Shown here piece after piece: positions 3,376-47,468 of a stretch of DNA of 64,000 bases. Within the stretch, counting starts at the first letter, position 1. The number at the start of each line of letters is the position of its first letter. The DNA is from Elusimicrobiota bacterium (lineage in GTDB: Bacteria > Elusimicrobiota > Elusimicrobia > UBA1565 > JACRDR01): contig JACQBA010000013.1 in the NCBI GenBank assembly GCA_016194745.1, positions 320,822-384,821 of the forward strand, in the 5' to 3' direction. The notes below the pieces were generated by a model. It was not told the DNA's origin. It saw nothing but the letters and a program-made list of their open reading frames with translations, and made no database searches. A program made the position numbers and the translations under genes.

Positions 3376-5380
3376 AGAAGACTCTCACCTCGGCGTCGTG
3401 GTGAAGAGGAGAGGTAAAGCCCGCGCTCTCGCCGTTGATGAGAAGACGGAGCCGCTTGCCGGGCACGGCCGACAGATTCATCGGGACGTGGCGGAACAAG
3501 TCGAACAGCATGACCCGCTCGCCGGGACCCGCGGCCGGCTGCAGGACGATCTCCTCCCCGTTGAGGCGCACGCGCAGGGAGTTGAAAGGCAACGGCGCTT
3601 CGGGCAACGGCTCGGGAAACGGCAGGGACGGCTCCGACACGCTCACGTCGAGCTGGTCGCCGGCGCACAGCACCGAACTCCTGGACGCCGGAGCCCCGTT
3701 GAGAAGGACCTTCAGCGTCACGGACGAACTGTCGTGGCGATGGCCCCGCGAATGGTGCATGAACTTCTCGGCGGCCTCCCACGCGGTCGCCGGAGAGTCC
3801 CACGCGATGCGAGCGCGATCCGGGAGCTCCGCGTCCAAGTTGCAATGCGCGCCGTCCAAGAGCGCGTTCGGGAAGACCGTCTGCAGGTCCCCGTTGATGC
3901 GCACTTGGACCGCCGCCTCGGCGAGCGCCTCGCGCAGGGTCGCGATGCCCTCGGCCCCAGAGGAACCGGGTTCGAACTTGATCCGGTCGTTCTCGCGCAG
4001 TTCACGGTCCAAGCCCGCCGGCTGCCCGTTGACGGAGATGCGGCCCCGGCTGCCGGGGAATCCGCGCACGGCGCGCACCTTTCCATTCAACGTATACGTA
4101 CGCGCGGGACCGGGCCGGCCGTAAATCTGGTCGGGGGGCACGCCCGCGGCGACGAACGCCGCCTGCACCGTCAGCGTCGCCCCGCTGTCGAGCAGATGGA
4201 CCGGCTTCTCATTGAGATACACCCGGCGAAACCGCAAGCCCGCCTTGTCGCGCGCCACGAGAGCAATCCCGAGCGGCGTCACGGCCTGAGGCGTGCTCAT
4301 CGCGGGCGATGCCGACTGGATCGAAGGAGCGCGGAAACCCACTCTGTCCCGTTCGATGCCGAGAGCGTCCGAGATGGCGTCCTCGATGCCCGGCGTGAGG
4401 CTGCCTCCTCCCACGCAGACAACGAGCTGCGGCGCCTGTCCTCCCGCGAGATCAAGGATGTGCGCGGCGATCTGACGGGCCAGCTCCTTTACGGCCGGCT
4501 CCAGGCCGCGGCGGATCTCGGCGGGGGCGAAGTGCCTCGGACGATGGAAAAGGTCCAGCGCTTCGATCGGGCCCTCCGACGCCAGCGAGCACTTCAGGCG
4601 TTCGGCGGTGAAGAAATCGACGAGGCATTGGTCGCTGATCCGATCCGTCACGAAGTCGCCCGCCATCGGCACCATGCCGAACGCCCGGACGCGTCCTTCG
4701 CGGACGATCGCGATATCAGAGGTCCCCGCGCCGATGTCGACGAGCGCGAGATGGAAGCGGCGCAGCCCTTCGGGAACCGCCGCCTGCAAGGCCGCGATGG
4801 GCTCGAGCGTCACGCACAGGGCCTCCAAGCCGGACGCCTCGAGCACGCTGAAAAGACTGTCGAGCACGCGTCGCGGCAGGAACGTGGCCAGCACCTCGGC
4901 CTCGAGCGTCTCTCCGACGTGGCCGACCGGCTGCGATAGCGTCTCCCCGTCGAGCGAGAACCACGTCACGACGTAGCCGACGCATTGATGATACTGCGCG
5001 CTGGCGTCCGAGGGCCCGAGCTGCCGCTGGGCCTCCTGCAGCGCCTGCTGCACGCACCATTGGGAGTCCTCGGCGGTCACCTGCTGGGGACGCGCGAACG
5101 GGAGCTTGGCGCGCCCGCGGACGGTCTTGAGATTGCGTCCGGCGACCGCGACCGCCGCCTTGGTCGGGATTTTTCCGCAGCGCGCCTCCAGCGCGGCGAT
5201 CGTTTCGCGGACGACCGCCGCCACTCGCGGCACGTCCTGAATCTGCCCGGCGCTCATGGAGCGCGTCGGATGCTCCACGAGCTCCGCGTCGTCCACGACC
5301 ACGCCGTCTCCTTCCGCTCGGGCGAGCAGGCCCATCACCTTGCGCGTCCCGATGTCCAGCGCGAATATCCTTTCCGTCAT
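3368..5380 (-). CDS. FtsA/PilM/EutJ-like actin-fold (ASKHA) ATPase with ~290-aa C-terminal extension of tandem beta-grasp (ThiS/MoaD- or S4-like) repeats
   Basis: The N-terminal FALDIGTRKV is an actin-fold phosphate-1 motif. LALVDIGAGTSDIAIV and VVCVGGGSLTPGIEDAISDALG match FtsA/PilM phosphate-2 and adenosine motifs. The C-terminus carries 5-6 repeats with an hxhxhNGxxh...GDxhxh pattern. The ATG overlaps the cheA stop (ATGA at 5377-5380). Confidence 0.6.
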   Translation of the reverse strand: MTERIFALDIGTRKVMGLLARAEGDGVVVDDAELVEHPTRSMSAGQIQDVPRVAAVVRETIAALEARCGKIPTKAAVAVAGRNLKTVRGRAKLPFARPQQVTAEDSQWCVQQALQEAQRQLGPSDASAQYHQCVGYVVTWFSLDGETLSQPVGHVGETLEAEVLATFLPRRVLDSLFSVLEASGLEALCVTLEPIAALQAAVPEGLRRFHLALVDIGAGTSDIAIVREGRVRAFGMVPMAGDFVTDRISDQCLVDFFTAERLKCSLASEGPIEALDLFHRPRHFAPAEIRRGLEPAVKELARQIAAHILDLAGGQAPQLVVCVGGGSLTPGIEDAISDALGIERDRVGFRAPSIQSASPAMSTPQAVTPLGIALVARDKAGLRFRRVYLNEKPVHLLDSGATLTVQAAFVAAGVPPDQIYGRPGPARTYTLNGKVRAVRGFPGSRGRISVNGQPAGLDRELRENDRIKFEPGSSGAEGIATLREALAEAAVQVRINGDLQTVFPNALLDGAHCNLDAELPDRARIAWDSPATAWEAAEKFMHHSRGHRHDSSSVTLKVLLNGAPASRSSVLCAGDQLDVSVSEPSLPFPEPLPEAPLPFNSLRVRLNGEEIVLQPAAGPGERVMLFDLFRHVPMNLSAVPGKRLRLLINGESAGFTSPLHHDAEVRVFFE

Positions 5381-44470: not shown

Positions 44471-45226
44471 CTATGAAGCGGCCTTCGAAAAAAAAGGCAG
44501 GGCGTCGTCGCGCAGCGCCCACGCGGCCATCGACGCGGCGTGGTCGAGCTCTTCCAGGCTGGAGACGATGTAGTAACCGGGTTTGCTCGTCACGTTCACG
44601 AGGTTCGTCGAAGTCTGCGACTTGCCCGGGCGGTCCTTCTGCAGAAAAATATTCACGCTGACGCCCCCGTATTTGCTCCGGACGCAGGAAATCGCAATGA
44701 CGTCCTTTCGTCCGCCCTTCGTCCGAGAGAGCCGCCCCGCGGCCGGGTCGGCCGAGAACCCGGCGTCCTTCAAGACGGGGGCCACCTTCTCCGCCAGATA
44801 CCGCATGACGGTAGCCGGAGTCAGCTTCTTGGGATCCGACGACTTCTTGCGCCGAGGATAGGCGACCGTAATGACGCTCACGCCGGATCGCCTTTCGAGC
44901 TGCGACACGACCTCGCCCCAAGCGTATTTGTAGGGCGGCTTTCTACCCAGCTGCTTGGCCAGCCACCCGTCGTGCCACACCTTTCTCGCGTCTTCGTCGA
45001 AATTCAAGTCTGCCATGCAAAGCGTAAGCAAAACCTCACCGCTCGGCGGGAACATCGCGAGCACCGAGAGGTCCTTGCCGCCCGCCGCCACCTTTAGATA
45101 ACCGGGCACTCGAGCTGGGCTGAGCGGAGGCAGCGCGGCCCACTGAGCCGGCGTCAGATCGGGCCCCAACTTGAATTCCCCCGCGCTCACCACACCGGTG
45201 TCCTTGTCGATGGCCAGTTCGTTCAT
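44471..45226 (-). CDS. Hypothetical protein
   Basis: Lys-rich, non-shadow composition; no recognised motif. Confidence 0.4.
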   Translation of the reverse strand: MNELAIDKDTGVVSAGEFKLGPDLTPAQWAALPPLSPARVPGYLKVAAGGKDLSVLAMFPPSGEVLLTLCMADLNFDEDARKVWHDGWLAKQLGRKPPYKYAWGEVVSQLERRSGVSVITVAYPRRKKSSDPKKLTPATVMRYLAEKVAPVLKDAGFSADPAAGRLSRTKGGRKDVIAISCVRSKYGGVSVNIFLQKDRPGKSQTSTNLVNVTSKPGYYIVSSLEELDHAASMAAWALRDDALPFFSKAAS

Positions 45227-45235
45227 GCGCCAATT

Positions 45236-45931
45236 CTAACTTTTCCGAGTCGAGCGCCCAAGCGGCCGTCCGAAGCCCCGGAAGATCCAACCTCTGGCGA
45301 ACATCCGCTCGCCGTCTTCTTCGCGAGTCGCGTACCAGTCGTCGCGCGACGCTTCGATGACCCTGTACGTCCCCGACGTCTCGACGCTGCTGACGAGGGC
45401 GATGTGGGAGATCCATCCCGACCGGCTCCGGCTCATGAAAACCACGTCGCCCGGCTCCGGCGGTCCGTCTTCGTCGAGGCAGCCGTTGTGCTTGCAATAG
45501 GAATATAGATTCCGCGCTCTGCGATCGAAGTAGGGATCACCCGGGTTTCCGTCGCGCTTGCCGTAGTGACCGGGATGCGCTCGATAGTCCGCCTCCAGGA
45601 GCCTGCGGATCGATGCCCCCGCGTTTCTATAGGCGATCGTCGGGACGTCCATGCAGACGATGAAGCCCGCCCTTCCGCCGATGTTGTTGAGGTACCCCTG
45701 CAGAGGGTCATACCACACGCCGACCAGCTTCCGCGCCTCCGCCACGATCATTTTTCGGTCGACGTGCTTGTTCCAGGCGTCGGGTTCCTTGTTAGGACCA
45801 CGGTAGATTCGATTTCGCCCGACGGTCGCGAGCGCAATCCCTAGAACGAGAACGATGGAAGCGACGATTGCAATCGCCGGAGCGACCGATTTCGACGATG
45901 ATCGAGGCATGAGCCGCAGTTCCCTTTTCAA
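45236..45931 (-). CDS. Membrane-anchored putative NlpC/P60-superfamily (DUF1287-like) hydrolase
   Basis: N-terminal TM. Cys in GFIVCMDVPTIAY and His in GWISHIALV suggest a papain-like Cys/His pair. Confidence 0.4.
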   Translation of the reverse strand: MKRELRLMPRSSSKSVAPAIAIVASIVLVLGIALATVGRNRIYRGPNKEPDAWNKHVDRKMIVAEARKLVGVWYDPLQGYLNNIGGRAGFIVCMDVPTIAYRNAGASIRRLLEADYRAHPGHYGKRDGNPGDPYFDRRARNLYSYCKHNGCLDEDGPPEPGDVVFMSRSRSGWISHIALVSSVETSGTYRVIEASRDDWYATREEDGERMFARGWIFRGFGRPLGRSTRKS

Positions 45932-46001
45932 CCATACGTTCGATCGGTTCGGTTTATTTCAACGGGCGCGCCGGCGTTCGACCCAAGGGCTGAAAAACGG
46001 T

Positions 46002-46055
46002 AATGCCTGCAGATCGAATCGGCTCGACGTGCAGGCATCTCGTAAAGTGGTGGGC
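46002..46055. repeat. Direct repeat copy 1 (hairpin aatgcctgca...tgcaggcatc + aagtggtgggc), ~80% identical to 47265..47318
   Basis: Aligns with the sequence immediately 3' of tRNA-Val plus its last 8 nt (tggtgggc). Confidence 0.6.
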
Positions 46056-46228
46056 CGTGACAGACAATCTTAGAAACTGGTTTTGAAGCAAAGGCTCAAT
46101 AGAATCGCCTGGTTGCCCATTTTGAGGGGGAGTTCAGGACATTGCTCGAACCCTCCGGAGCTCTCGCTGATTTTTTAATGGAACTTTTTGGCGTCCCCAA
46201 TCGTATACATAATGGAGGACGTTAACCC

Positions 46229-46732
46229 ATGCAACCATCCCTTCCCGCGGAAACGCTTGAGCATCGAATCTATTTTATCCGCGGCCACAGGGTTATGCTT
46301 GATAGCCATCTGGCTGAACTCTATGGCGTTTCTACGGGCAACCTGAATAAGGCTATCACCAGAAATACCGATCGATTTCCCGACGACTTCATGTTCCAAC
46401 TCAGCACGAAGGAGTCTCAAATCTTAAGATTCCAAATTGGAAGCTTAAGATGGGGCAAGCATTCGAAATATCTTCCCCGAGTTTTTACCGAGCAAGGCGT
46501 GGCGATGCTTTCCAGCGTCCTTCGCAGCAAACGCGCGGTTCACGTCAACATTGGAATCATGCGCGCCTTCGTGAAATTAAGGCGTCTGGTATCTTCCTAT
46601 CCTGGTTTAGCGCGGCGATTGGACGAGCTGGAATCGAGATATGATGCGCAATTCAAGGAAGTCTTTGCGGCCATCCGAGGTTTGATGGCCTATCCAAAAG
46701 AACCCGGGCGGCGAATAGGATTCAAGCCGTAG
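46229..46732 (+). CDS. ORF6N-domain (KilA-N-like) DNA-binding protein, mobile-element associated
   Basis: IYFIRGHRVMLDSHLAELYGVSTGNLNKAITRNTDRFPDDFMFQLS matches the ORF6N N-terminal signature. It lies in a locally low-GC segment. Confidence 0.7.
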   Translation: MQPSLPAETLEHRIYFIRGHRVMLDSHLAELYGVSTGNLNKAITRNTDRFPDDFMFQLSTKESQILRFQIGSLRWGKHSKYLPRVFTEQGVAMLSSVLRSKRAVHVNIGIMRAFVKLRRLVSSYPGLARRLDELESRYDAQFKEVFAAIRGLMAYPKEPGRRIGFKP

Positions 46733-46748
46733 CGGCTCAATCGGATGG

Positions 46749-47171
46749 TTAGGCGACGTCAAGCCTCTGCCGCTTACCGATGACTACCTCGGTGATTGCC
46801 GCCTTCAGAGATTCTAGCTCGGGATGGACCCAAATACCCTTGGCAACTAATCCGCCGCCCATTCCACCAGAAACAGTTTCACCTACGGCGCCGCGCTCAA
46901 AAGAGATCCGAGCGGAAGTGGGGTCATTCCAGCCATGCGCATCGATGTCGATGAGCAAAGCTTGTAACGCCGATCCGCTACAGTTAACGCAGCCCACTTG
47001 GGCGACAGCATATATCTGGCCGCCGCCATCTCCTTCAAAAACAACGATCCCATCTGGATGGGCCTTCGCTTGCTCAAGCGTTTCGACGGCCTCGTAGGGC
47101 TTTCCTCCGGCGTCAGACATTAGACGCCGCAAGCCGCTTTCGTGATCTGGCAGGTGGTCCGGCTTATCCAT
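46749..47171 (-). CDS. Hypothetical protein (islet cargo)
   Basis: Located in the low-GC segment. No recognised motif. Confidence 0.4.
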   Translation of the reverse strand: MDKPDHLPDHESGLRRLMSDAGGKPYEAVETLEQAKAHPDGIVVFEGDGGGQIYAVAQVGCVNCSGSALQALLIDIDAHGWNDPTSARISFERGAVGETVSGGMGGGLVAKGIWVHPELESLKAAITEVVIGKRQRLDVA

Positions 47172-47264
47172 TTGTTCGCACGCAATTGCCTAAAGCGGTA
47201 ATTAATTGACCTGCATATCACTCCCAGCACAGATTTATTGCTCATCGCTCGAACCGAATAAGCA

Positions 47265-47318
47265 CAATGCCTGCAAATCGAAATTGATCGACTTGCAGGC
47301 ATCCTAACAAATGGTGGG
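47265..47318. repeat. Direct repeat copy 2, overlapping the 3' end of tRNA-Val and its downstream hairpin
   Basis: aatgcctgcaaatcgaaattgatcgacttgcaggcatc...aaatggtgggc. Confidence 0.6.
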
Positions 47319-47386
47319 CAGTACAGGATTCGAACCTGTGACCCCTGTCGTGTGAGGACAGTGCTCTACCGCTGAGCTAACTGCCC
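47312..47386 (-). tRNA. tRNA-Val (anticodon CAC), CCA encoded
   Basis: Reverse complement reads GGGCAGTTAGCTCAGCGGTAGAGCACTGTCCTCACACGACAGGGGTCACAGGTTCGAATCCTGTACTGCCCACCA. Anticodon loop is CTCACAC. Confidence 0.85.
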
Positions 47387-47468
47387 GAAAGCGGCGACTA
47401 GATTATAGCAATTCGGGCGCTCACCGGTTCTTGCGCGCCGGTGACCGGCCGCGTATGCTTATACGGCA

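Follow-up and report, generated by a model that had tools for sequence, protein, structure and literature searches.

A putative integrase-less mini-island carrying an ORF6N gene next to tRNA-Val in an Elusimicrobiota genome

We analyzed a 64-kb stretch of DNA from an Elusimicrobiota bacterium (here called the window, at its full length), in which a low-GC segment of about 1.3 kb lies against the 3' end of a tRNA-Val(CAC) gene. The question this locus raises is whether the segment was inserted at the tRNA gene and how a segment without a recombinase could have come to be there. The original prediction, in which it was the remnant of a tRNA-targeted integrative element, is partly supported. The explanation we favor, with a probability of roughly 0.55, is that of a horizontally acquired mini-island at the tRNA-Val(CAC) 3' end (approximately 46047 to 47311), with att-like junctions and without an integrase.

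Composition and repeats at the tRNA-Val boundary

The segment is compositionally foreign. GC content between the repeats described below ranged from 0.47 to 0.56, compared with 0.60 to 0.72 outside them, and the predicted drop was borne out by the overall values (island, 0.517; flanks, 0.670). The same holds for third codon positions (GC3 of 0.554 for the ORF6N gene and 0.574 for a 140-aa open reading frame [ORF], versus 0.85 to 0.93 for most host ORFs). The foreign DNA starts immediately 3' of tRNA-Val(CAC) (47312 to 47386, minus strand), which is intact and encodes its CCA (ARAGORN; Rfam tRNA, 71.5 bits, full length). Upstream of the tRNA is a putative extended -10-like motif, TTGCTATAAT (47402 to 47411, minus strand), of a type also found upstream of the tRNA-Val genes in four related loci (L005, L170, L171, and L254).

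A repeat search returned a single outstanding family, a 57-nt ungapped direct repeat of 77% identity (46002 to 46058 and 47266 to 47322) that encloses about 1.2 kb. Local alignment of the boundary regions gave a score of 24.5, about 16 standard deviations above the mean of 1,000 dinucleotide shuffles (mean, 8.6; standard deviation, 1.0; max, 16). The repeat that had been described as ∼54 nt long and ∼80% identical, with one copy at 47265 to 47318, is real, but its coordinates were off by about one base and its length is slightly greater. In each copy, a stable 15- to 16-bp hairpin is joined by a spacer to TGGTGGGC, the terminal 3' sequence of tRNA-Val(CAC), which in the distal copy reads TGGTGGGCCGT. 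The proximal copy does overlap the tRNA, covering its last 11 nt without gaps rather than the 8 nt first proposed, and about 17 nt with one indel.

Both copies contain an inverted repeat with 15-nt arms (written ATGCCTGCA..TGCAGGCAT) and a 6-nt loop. The proximal hairpin (47267 to 47302, minus strand) lies immediately 3' of the tRNA and gave a terminator-like match in a terminator scan. Folded as minus-strand RNA, it reached -28.7 kcal/mol (z = -7.2); the distal hairpin (46003 to 46038, minus strand), which has one C-C mismatch in this form, reached -24.3 kcal/mol (z = -5.7). Four nucleotides past the distal hairpin is a T-run (AAAAA on the plus strand; 45993 to 45997, minus strand; fold input ending ...GCAUUACCGUUUUUCAG), and the hairpin and T-run lie about 85 nt upstream of the start of a CHAP/DUF1287 gene (45910). 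By its appearance, the distal hairpin with its T-run looks like the original intrinsic terminator. The loops differ between the copies at 4 of 6 central nucleotides (ATCGGC versus AATTGA), and the spacers differ as well; with an identity of only 77%, the repeats are therefore not fresh junctions. A Xer/dif-like or lox-like core, which the 15-6-15 layout might recall, was rejected as a working site on the basis of the same four central differences and the lack of a recombinase.

The hairpin adjoining tRNA-Val(CAC) is also present, in an orthologous position 3' of the tRNA, in L171 and L254; no second hairpin was seen in either locus. Thus, it probably acts as a terminator-type hairpin of the tRNA, and it is not specific to the island. 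Of the 57 repeat nucleotides, 46 fall beyond the tRNA, an uncommon arrangement for an att site in a tRNA gene; an inserted element would have to have brought along a terminator copied from the host lineage.

The distal repeat runs into a tRNA-3'-end-like fragment (46047 to 46064, minus strand, ...GTCTGTCACGGCCCACCA). The first 12 nt of this fragment, TGGTGGGCCGTG, are the same as those at the 3' terminus of tRNA-Val(TAC) in L005 and differ from the adjacent tRNA-Val(CAC), so the noncoding leader that starts here is probably no copy of the resident tRNA and arrived with the element. The idea that the distal repeat is a whole decayed tRNA gene was rejected, as a convincing alignment is confined to the final ∼17 nt.

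Genes and regulatory sequences of the segment

The ORF6N gene was found where it had been called (46229 to 46732, plus strand). Its 167-aa product, named in NCBI "ORF6N domain-containing protein [Elusimicrobia bacterium]," matches Pfam PF10543 (ORF6N) over residues 13 to 97 (1.5e-31; 108.9 bits versus a cut-off of 27.8). The protein is made up of this domain and a C-terminal region of ∼70 aa only; Pfam recognized no catalytic domain in the 167 aa. It also matches PHROG 4792, "anti-repressor" (1.3e-24), and three PADLOC models of the candidate single-gene phage-defense family PDC-S05, the best being PDLC04856 (7.8e-52). A PDC-S05 representative with a Virulence_RhuM domain lowered the plating of phages T7 and T5 about 1,000-fold in Escherichia coli (bioRxiv 10.1101/2024.09.26.614923); because the tested protein had the RhuM domain, this result carries over to the ORF6N protein of the window only by inference. 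Defense-type genes neighbor some of its relatives (AbiEii in L168; RVT_1 and SIR2_2 in L256).

This family does not answer to the description of ORF6N genes as typical of phage or ICE regulatory regions: in the great majority of cases its members stand alone on a chromosome, and few occur in phages or plasmids. Pattern matches numbered more than 600 in a genome scan and more than 600 in a metagenome scan, whereas we found 92 relatives in IMG/VR (the closest 57% identical), 5 in GenBank phage records, and 25 in plasmids, all of them below 60% identity. No phage genes were found near the island. A phage or satellite origin was rejected given the distance of these viral and plasmid relatives and the absence of the leader motif from IMG/VR.

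The second gene (46749 to 47171, minus strand) had been called a hypothetical on the opposite strand, and its 140-aa product indeed has no Pfam, PHROG, NCBIfam, or PADLOC match. Yet, judging from an alignment with its five homologues (43 to 52% identity; 39 invariant columns), the ORF is a real gene from a rare uncharacterized family with the motifs EGD.GGQIYAV and SGGMGGG. It is cargo specific to the window locus.

The conserved noncoding leader upstream of ORF6N (46047 to 46165, plus strand) has nhmmer homologues in L168 (3351 to 3475 and 4086 to 4219) and L254 (4021 to 4140), with E values from 2e-35 to 1e-16. Its start, TGGTGG, is common to the window, L168 (twice), L254, and L170. Two motifs were identified within the leader: an imperfect palindrome, TCTTAGAAACTGGTTTTGAAG (46068 to 46088), that appears to resemble a half-site of the palindrome inside the gene, and a box, GAGTTCAGGACATTGCTCGAAC (46130 to 46151, plus strand), conserved across loci. 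The box is present upstream of ORF6N once in the window, L006, L170, L171, and L254 and twice in L168, and an inverted copy abuts the tRNA in L254 (17/20 identity); across 1.5 Mb of other loci, its core 10-mer was counted 12 times. The box might be a decayed copy of a tRNA; the similarity is patchy (p = 0.005 to 0.3, depending on the locus). A promoter-like motif, GGAACTTTTT-N-CGTATACA (46180 to 46209, plus strand), is conserved in all seven close loci and is followed by the ribosome binding site GGAGGA (46214 to 46219, plus strand). This motif resembles the ECF-sigma -35/-10 consensus and may be a promoter of that type; a sigma-70 promoter scan gave nothing at these positions.

The leader was rejected as a structured or tRNA-like RNA, as RNAalifold found no conserved structure and Rfam at E<=5 gave only the real tRNA, and the interpretation of CCAGTTTCTAAGATTG as a decayed T-arm was dropped because the sequence is conserved in L168 and is like a half-site of the ORF6N palindrome. 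That palindrome is 31 nt long (ATCTTAAGATTCCAAATTGGAAGCTTAAGAT, 46421 to 46451) and lies in the coding sequence, where it encodes ILRFQIGSLRW. In the ORF6N family at large, approximately 70 to 85% of the genes have a covarying DNA palindrome with 10- to 18-bp arms within the coding sequence, and a repeat of it in the promoter is frequent.

ORF6N genes beside tRNA-Val in other genomes

Seven independent loci had ORF6N genes of at least 75% identity, and in six of them (the window, L005, L006, L170, L171, and L254) the gene lies 3' of a tRNA-Val gene, in convergent orientation and 11 to 579 nt away. In the five loci other than the window, this distance is 11 to 480 nt and the loci are non-syntenic; no flanking genes were common to any pair of loci by tblastx. 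In L005 the ORF6N gene is wedged between tRNA-Val(TAC) and tRNA-Asp, and in L006 it lies between copies of another 23-nt hairpin repeat, clear of the tRNA. The seventh locus, L168, has an ORF6N gene that is 89% identical and is without a tRNA; its leader of about 115 nt is directly repeated on both sides of the gene. In all six loci measured, the ORF6N gene was 10 to 17 GC points below its host. No convergent tRNA-Val was found beside ORF6N genes of 66 to 71% identity (L256 and L259), and among 160 distant homologues only one had a tRNA of any kind within 300 nt, with no convergent tRNA-Val. The proposed targeting of tRNA-Val gains support from the five non-syntenic loci.

Comparison of the sequences indicates that ORF6N similarity does not track tRNA type. 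The tRNA-Val(CAC) genes are identical within two groups (window and L006; L170, L171, and L254) that differ from each other at 4 positions. The window ORF6N is 82% identical to those of L170, which has the other tRNA-Val(CAC) sequence, and L005, which has tRNA-Val(TAC), but only 75% identical to that of L006, whose tRNA is identical to its own. The most similar pair is L171 and L254 (83%), which also share the tRNA and the hairpin.

The prediction that no integrase remains proved correct: the island holds two genes, neither of them a recombinase, and the annotation shows no such gene for ∼5 kb to the left or to the right. Moreover, Pfam searches found no integrase among 17 ORFs of the window, including those beside its other two tRNAs, and none was found at the related ORF6N loci. 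No relative sharing the S41 peptidase flank of the window was found in genome contigs, a homology search returned the identical protein only, and Logan contigs from the same samples begin inside the tRNA. Neither an integrase-bearing relative nor a circular junction was found. The description of the segment as decayed is thus not upheld; because the same minimal integrase-less module recurs, independent decay is a poor account of it. With no empty site, helper integrase, or circular junction found, mobility is inferred only from comparative anatomy.

Origin of the segment and its relation to known systems

In the mini-island explanation, the conserved core would be a cassette of ∼0.7 kb comprising a leader that starts with a copy of the tRNA-Val 3' end (TGGTGGGCCGTG...), a promoter, and the ORF6N gene; in the window genome, the cassette would also have brought the 140-aa gene and a copy of the tRNA terminator hairpin. 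The two 57-nt repeats would be the left and right att-like junctions, with the common core GCCCACCA corresponding to the tRNA 3' end. With the hairpin next to it, the tRNA would have a terminator again, and the distal hairpin with its T-run would most likely be the original terminator, moved 1.26 kb away. Site-specific recombination may have placed the segment at the tRNA 3' end, with a recombinase encoded elsewhere, as for cis-mobilizable elements and satellites. The ORF6N gene may be retained for a benefit to the host (defense) and may autoregulate through palindromic operators. Against the mini-island explanation stand the 77% identity of the repeats with their different loops and spacers, the 46 repeat nucleotides beyond the tRNA, the other hairpin repeat around ORF6N in L006, and the lack of a second hairpin in L171 and L254. 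An old single insertion followed by vertical descent is possible, because the tRNA-Val(CAC) genes are near-identical and perhaps belong to one Elusimicrobiota lineage.

It is also possible, though we think it rather unlikely, that the linkage of ORF6N to tRNA-Val(CAC) is ancestral and vertically inherited and that the distal repeat, rather than being an att site, arose from the tRNA tail and terminator by local duplication, perhaps together with the arrival of the 140-aa gene. This explanation would account for the near-identity of the tRNA genes, for the same hairpin following the tRNA in the window, L171, and L254, with the window's proximal hairpin by eye the closer one to that of L171, and for the joint presence of tRNA, hairpin, and closest ORF6N pair in L171 and L254. 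Further, the most GC-rich ORF6N gene is found in the most GC-rich host (L006), which suggests long residence, and no recombinase was found at any locus. On the other hand, a non-essential ORF6N gene has stayed within 11 to 579 nt of the tRNA despite the lack of any common flanking gene, and the GC3 of the island is still ∼0.3 below that of the host genes. The gene also occurs beside another isoacceptor in L005 and without any tRNA in L168, its similarity is incongruent with tRNA type, and the distal fragment matches a TAC-type acceptor end and not the resident tRNA.

Bacteria commonly have families of intergenic hairpins, and the two hairpins could be dispersed REP-like or terminator copies that flank two genes by chance and have nothing to do with an insertion. 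The stable hairpin makes up most of the repeat, and the ORF6N gene of L006 has another hairpin pair around it. However, we consider this improbable: the 15-mer hairpin arm has four matches in the 64-kb window (0.31 expected), all within these two hairpins at the island locus, and in 261 fetched loci (∼1.5 Mb), which include copies of the window locus, all other occurrences of the motif are beside tRNA-Val(CAC) in L171 and L254/L255. Dispersed copies, which would have spoken against the original prediction, were not found in these sequences. Moreover, the repeat does not stop at the hairpin but takes in the spacer and the tRNA 3' end, and its boundary coincides with the point where the leader shared with L168 and L254 begins.

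We regard as very improbable a self-mobile one-gene element whose ORF6N protein directs its own insertion beside tRNA-Val with the box and palindromes as recognition sites: the cassette recurs without a recombinase gene, an inverted box abuts the tRNA in L254, and palindromic sites are conserved in and around ORF6N-family genes, but ORF6N/KilA-N domains are not known to be anything other than DNA-binding modules (Pfam description; reportedly also Iyer, Koonin, and Aravind, 2002), the 167 aa hold no catalytic domain, the 160 distant family members have no tRNA association, and neither target-site duplications nor consistent terminal inverted repeats were found across loci.

A broader speculation, to which we give little credence, is that this subclade consists of unrecognized minimal, recombinase-less elements of the tRNA-Val 3' end, in which ORF6N recognizes its own palindrome and box sites, and possibly tRNA-gene-like DNA, for insertion, maintenance, or defense, and that the whole ORF6N/PDC-S05 family has an in-gene self-operator.

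The conserved in-gene palindrome, with its frequent repeat in promoters, suggests a candidate DNA site for the ORF6N protein, which would make the mechanism of an uncharacterized, very widespread family directly testable. The mini-island itself is best regarded as a routine case of tRNA-linked gene flux with one recurrent habit, adjacency to tRNA-Val. A candidate one-gene defense module (PDC-S05) would travel or persist tied to tRNA-Val in Elusimicrobiota, and the segment offers a concrete case in which to study how cargo without a recombinase comes to sit at tRNA genes.

Compared with known systems, the segment resembles the islands and prophages that target tRNA genes (tyrosine integrases, P4-type), for which sublocation classes were reportedly set out by Williams in 2002, in its site at a tRNA 3' end, its intact tRNA, a repeat that contains the tRNA 3' end, its foreign composition, and its cargo, which other genomes likewise have beside this tRNA species. 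It differs from them in having no integrase, a size of only 1.3 kb, repeats that are only 77% identical, and just 11 to 17 repeat nucleotides in the tRNA, with 46 downstream in the hairpin. The CIMEs, known from work on ICESt1/St3 of Streptococcus thermophilus as att-flanked, recombinase-less islets derived from or mobilized by ICEs, are similar in their att-like flanking repeats, small size, lack of recombination and transfer genes, and presumed recombinase in trans, whereas for the segment no integrase or ICE whose att sites match was identified and mobilization is putative. With PDC-S05 it shares the three model matches, a solitary gene, and defense-type neighbors in some relatives, but its protein consists of ORF6N and the C-terminal region where the tested representative has Virulence_RhuM, which makes it a candidate defense gene only. 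The phage anti-repressors and KilA-N/ORF6N regulators (PHROG 4792) have the ORF6N domain in common with it; the subfamily of the window, however, is rare in phages and has no phage genes nearby. Finally, REP/BIME hairpins and integron attC sites are likewise imperfect palindromes around a gene cassette, but the hairpin of the segment was not dispersed in the sequences searched, it lacks the attC core GTTRRRY, intI was not found, and the repeat takes in the end of the tRNA.

Composition, repeats, and genes of the island

The island beside tRNA-Val(CAC) (47312-47386, minus strand; intact, CCA encoded) is a segment of ~1.2 to 1.3 kb bracketed by direct repeats. Its low GC content, part of the original prediction, was borne out: GC fell to 0.47 to 0.56 between the repeats, and GC3 was 0.55 to 0.57 in both island genes versus 0.85 to 0.93 in nearly all host ORFs. 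In each of the six loci where it was measured, ORF6N GC content was 10 to 17 points lower than that of the host. Left of the island, a 251-aa hypothetical and a CHAP/DUF1287 gene (44471-45931) had GC3 of 0.75 to 0.80, below the host norm; the tRNA-distal side may carry older accessory DNA.

The repeat copies (46002-46058, distal; 47266-47322, proximal) were 77% identical over 57 nt, with an alignment score of 24.5 versus 8.6 ± 1.0 in shuffles. The predicted repeat is thus present, with a length of 57 rather than 54 nt, a proximal start at 47266, and a tRNA overlap of 11 to 17 rather than 8 nt. The proximal hairpin (47267-47302; stem, 15 to 16 bp; -28.7 kcal/mol as minus-strand RNA) lies directly 3' of the tRNA and also scored as terminator-like. 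The distal copy, 1,264 bp beyond, comprises a hairpin, an 8- to 9-nt spacer, and the tRNA tail TGGTGGGC(C/A)GT. The distal hairpin resembles a complete intrinsic terminator, being followed by ACCGTTTTT on the minus strand, and lies ~85 nt upstream of the CHAP/DUF1287 gene, in the same direction.

The island holds two genes, whose products are labeled "MAG: ... [Elusimicrobia bacterium]" at NCBI. The first (46229-46732, plus strand) encodes an ORF6N-domain protein (Pfam, 1.5e-31) that also matches PHROG 4792, "anti-repressor," and, by PADLOC, the candidate single-gene defense family PDC-S05 (7.8e-52). A PDC-S05 representative reduced T7 and T5 plating ~1000-fold in E. coli (bioRxiv 10.1101/2024.09.26.614923); because that representative had a RhuM domain, we can only infer that the result extends to the island protein. 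Defense-type genes occur near some homologues, namely a reverse transcriptase with SIR2_2 (locus L256, 678-3401) and AbiEii (locus L168, 1946-2761), consistent with the PADLOC label. Most members of this very large family are chromosomal. Of more than 8000 proteins scored, the best 120 were 61 to 100% identical and came from Elusimicrobia, Deltaproteobacteria, Nitrospira, and others; genome and metagenome scans each gave at least 600 matches. Counts in mobile DNA were lower by comparison: 92 relatives in IMG/VR (≤57% identity), 25 on plasmids, and 5 among GenBank phage records.

The 140-aa product of the second gene (46749-47171, minus strand; HY078_ locus tag) belongs to a rare family, with five homologues and 39 invariant columns. 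It matched no family or fold in our searches and was absent from all other ORF6N loci examined. No recombinase was found in the island, within ~5 kb on either side (precomputed Pfam), or among 17 window ORFs scanned, and over that range the earlier statement that no integrase remains holds.

Recurrence beside tRNA-Val and origin of the island

We compared seven independent loci with ORF6N identity of at least 75%, the window included. In the window, 579 nt separate the ORF6N stop codon from the tRNA-Val(CAC) 3' end. In L005 (82% identity), the cassette is wedged between tRNA-Val(TAC), at 11 nt, and tRNA-Asp, 113 nt upstream of the ORF6N start. L170 (82%) has tRNA-Val(CAC) at 66 nt, and the tRNA-Val lies at 73 nt in L171 (77%), 480 nt in L254 (77%; Elusimicrobiota GCA_038059415.1), and 222 nt in L006 (75%; Elusimicrobiota GCA_033875325.1); the window's hairpin adjoins the tRNA in L171 and recurs in L254. 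L168 (89%) has no tRNA. The tRNA and ORF6N were convergent in 6/6 tRNA loci. No tRNA was nearby in the next two homologues (71% and 66%), and of 160 distant homologues a single one lay within 300 nt of a tRNA of any kind and none beside a convergent tRNA-Val. ORF6N similarity does not track tRNA type: the window protein shares 82% identity with its L170 and L005 counterparts and only 75% with that of L006, whose tRNA is the window's. By tblastx, no flanking gene was common to any of the close loci, the window included, and none of the seven had an annotated integrase. This recurrent association of one ORF6N subclade with tRNA-Val appears to be unreported in the searchable literature and is of modest general surprise.

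Some loci had further repeats. A different hairpin-forming direct repeat flanks ORF6N in L006 (5906-5928 and 6619-6641; 23 nt, 91% identical, no tRNA overlap). Upstream of tRNA-Asp and tRNA-Val(TAC) in L005 (893-918 and 1613-1636) are common 12-nt and 14-nt blocks, including a -10-like motif, TGCTATACT; their swapped order may point to a rearrangement associated with the arrival of ORF6N between these tRNA genes.

The window and L168 share a conserved DNA stretch that begins exactly at TGGTGG (46047), extends over ~120 nt as far as a box, GAGTTYAGGACNNTNYTYGAAC (46130-46151), then covers a promoter-like motif, GGAAC(T/A)(T/A)TT-N13-14-CGTATACA, and enters the gene. We read this motif (46180-46209), kept in all close loci, as resembling ECF-type rather than sigma-70 promoters, and the gene may be stress-induced. 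The noncoding leader (46047-46165), in which no conserved RNA structure was found, occurs twice in L168, as a ~115-nt direct repeat with one copy on each side of ORF6N, and once in L254; it is shortened in L170 and L171, and L006 has the box alone. Its first 12 nt in the window, TGGTGGGCCGTG, equal the 3' end of the L005 tRNA-Val(TAC) gene, whereas the adjacent tRNA-Val(CAC) has TGGTGGGCAGTA. The distal tRNA-like fragment is therefore no copy of the resident gene and, judged by this match, is probably element-borne.

In L254 only, 20-nt inverted repeats bracket the ORF6N segment: 5120-5139 (minus strand) is an inverted copy of the box at 4083-4102 (17/20 identical) and adjoins the discriminator base of tRNA-Val(CAC), which there lacks an encoded CCA. 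The box and its preceding G-run (window, 46122-46172; equivalents in L006, L168, and L254) resemble, in patches, two separate parts of tRNA-Val, acceptor/T-stem and anticodon-stem/D-arm (P = 0.005 to 0.02 per locus), and may derive from a tRNA copy that decayed and lost an internal segment.

We give a probability of roughly 0.55 to an integrase-less, tRNA-Val-associated island. Insertion at the 3' end of tRNA-Val, with GCCCACCA as the core, is the most economical account; the distal hairpin and T-run would then be the terminator that the host had originally, the element would have brought the proximal hairpin and spacer, and the leader would be the element's att arm. Several features fit this account less well: the repeat is mostly outside the tRNA, its copies share only 77% identity and differ in their hairpin loops, the L006 gene has a different repeat around it, and we found neither an integrase nor an empty site or circular form. 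Its main competitor is vertical descent, within one Elusimicrobiota lineage, of an old insertion or an ancestral linkage; this would explain the near-identical tRNAs and common hairpin, but it seems unlikely given the complete lack of synteny, the still-foreign GC3, the TAC-type tRNA fragment, and loci L005 and L168. REP-like coincidence of the hairpins is a weak and improbable explanation, as the hairpin occurs within the 64 kb at the island locus only and, in the 261 other loci compared (about 1.5 Mb), only beside tRNA-Val(CAC) or in copies of the window locus; self-mobility driven by ORF6N is more improbable still.

A palindrome inside ORF6N genes

The window ORF6N coding sequence contains a 31-nt palindrome (46421-46451), and most of ~260 ORF6N-family loci from many phyla have a palindrome at the equivalent codon-aligned position. 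These palindromes are perfect or near-perfect, span 27 to 35 nt, and are always centered on the same base; arms of 10 to 18 bp with at most one mismatch were present in 181 of 249 nonduplicate loci to ~85%, depending on the scoring used. Across 13 pairs in 107 distinct sequences, 91.5% of cells were Watson-Crick in register, versus 71% in shuffles and 26 to 44% once the partner was slid. Both sides had changed in 310 cells (105 expected), a count reached by 0/500 shuffles. The encoded peptide varies along with the arms (LRFQIGIL, LRCQFGTL, LRSQIVTL, LISQNAIS).

A second palindrome of this class often lies 30 to 90 nt upstream of the start codon, and palindrome density was six-fold enriched near the gene (0.40 per kb within 400 nt versus 0.066 per kb farther off). 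These second, sometimes third, copies (consensus, ~TTGAGGTCACAAATTGTGACCTCAA) occupy the promoter region or lie just downstream of many family genes; examples, measured from the ORF6N start or stop, are at -36 (L126), -10 (L033), -216 (L141), -63/-32 (L027), -94/+58 (L259), and -76 (L256). G-U pairs are almost absent from the arms; this and the promoter copies favor a site in double-stranded DNA. In the simplest case, the palindrome would serve the ORF6N protein as its own operator, and the promoter-region copies suggest autoregulation via paired operators. Our literature search found no paper describing the in-gene palindrome, which is possibly worth more than the island finding.

Relation to known systems

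On the evidence of the 64-kb window and the loci compared, the island is neither an integron cassette nor a REP element. Its ORF6N gene belongs, by HMM, to ORF6N/KilA-N and to PADLOC PDC-S05. Without an integrase, the island falls outside complete integrative elements; cis-mobilizable elements need a helper, and for the island this would be a recombinase encoded elsewhere. The island works like a tRNA-targeted genomic islet, and its closest match is to cis-mobilizable, att-flanked, recombinase-less elements.
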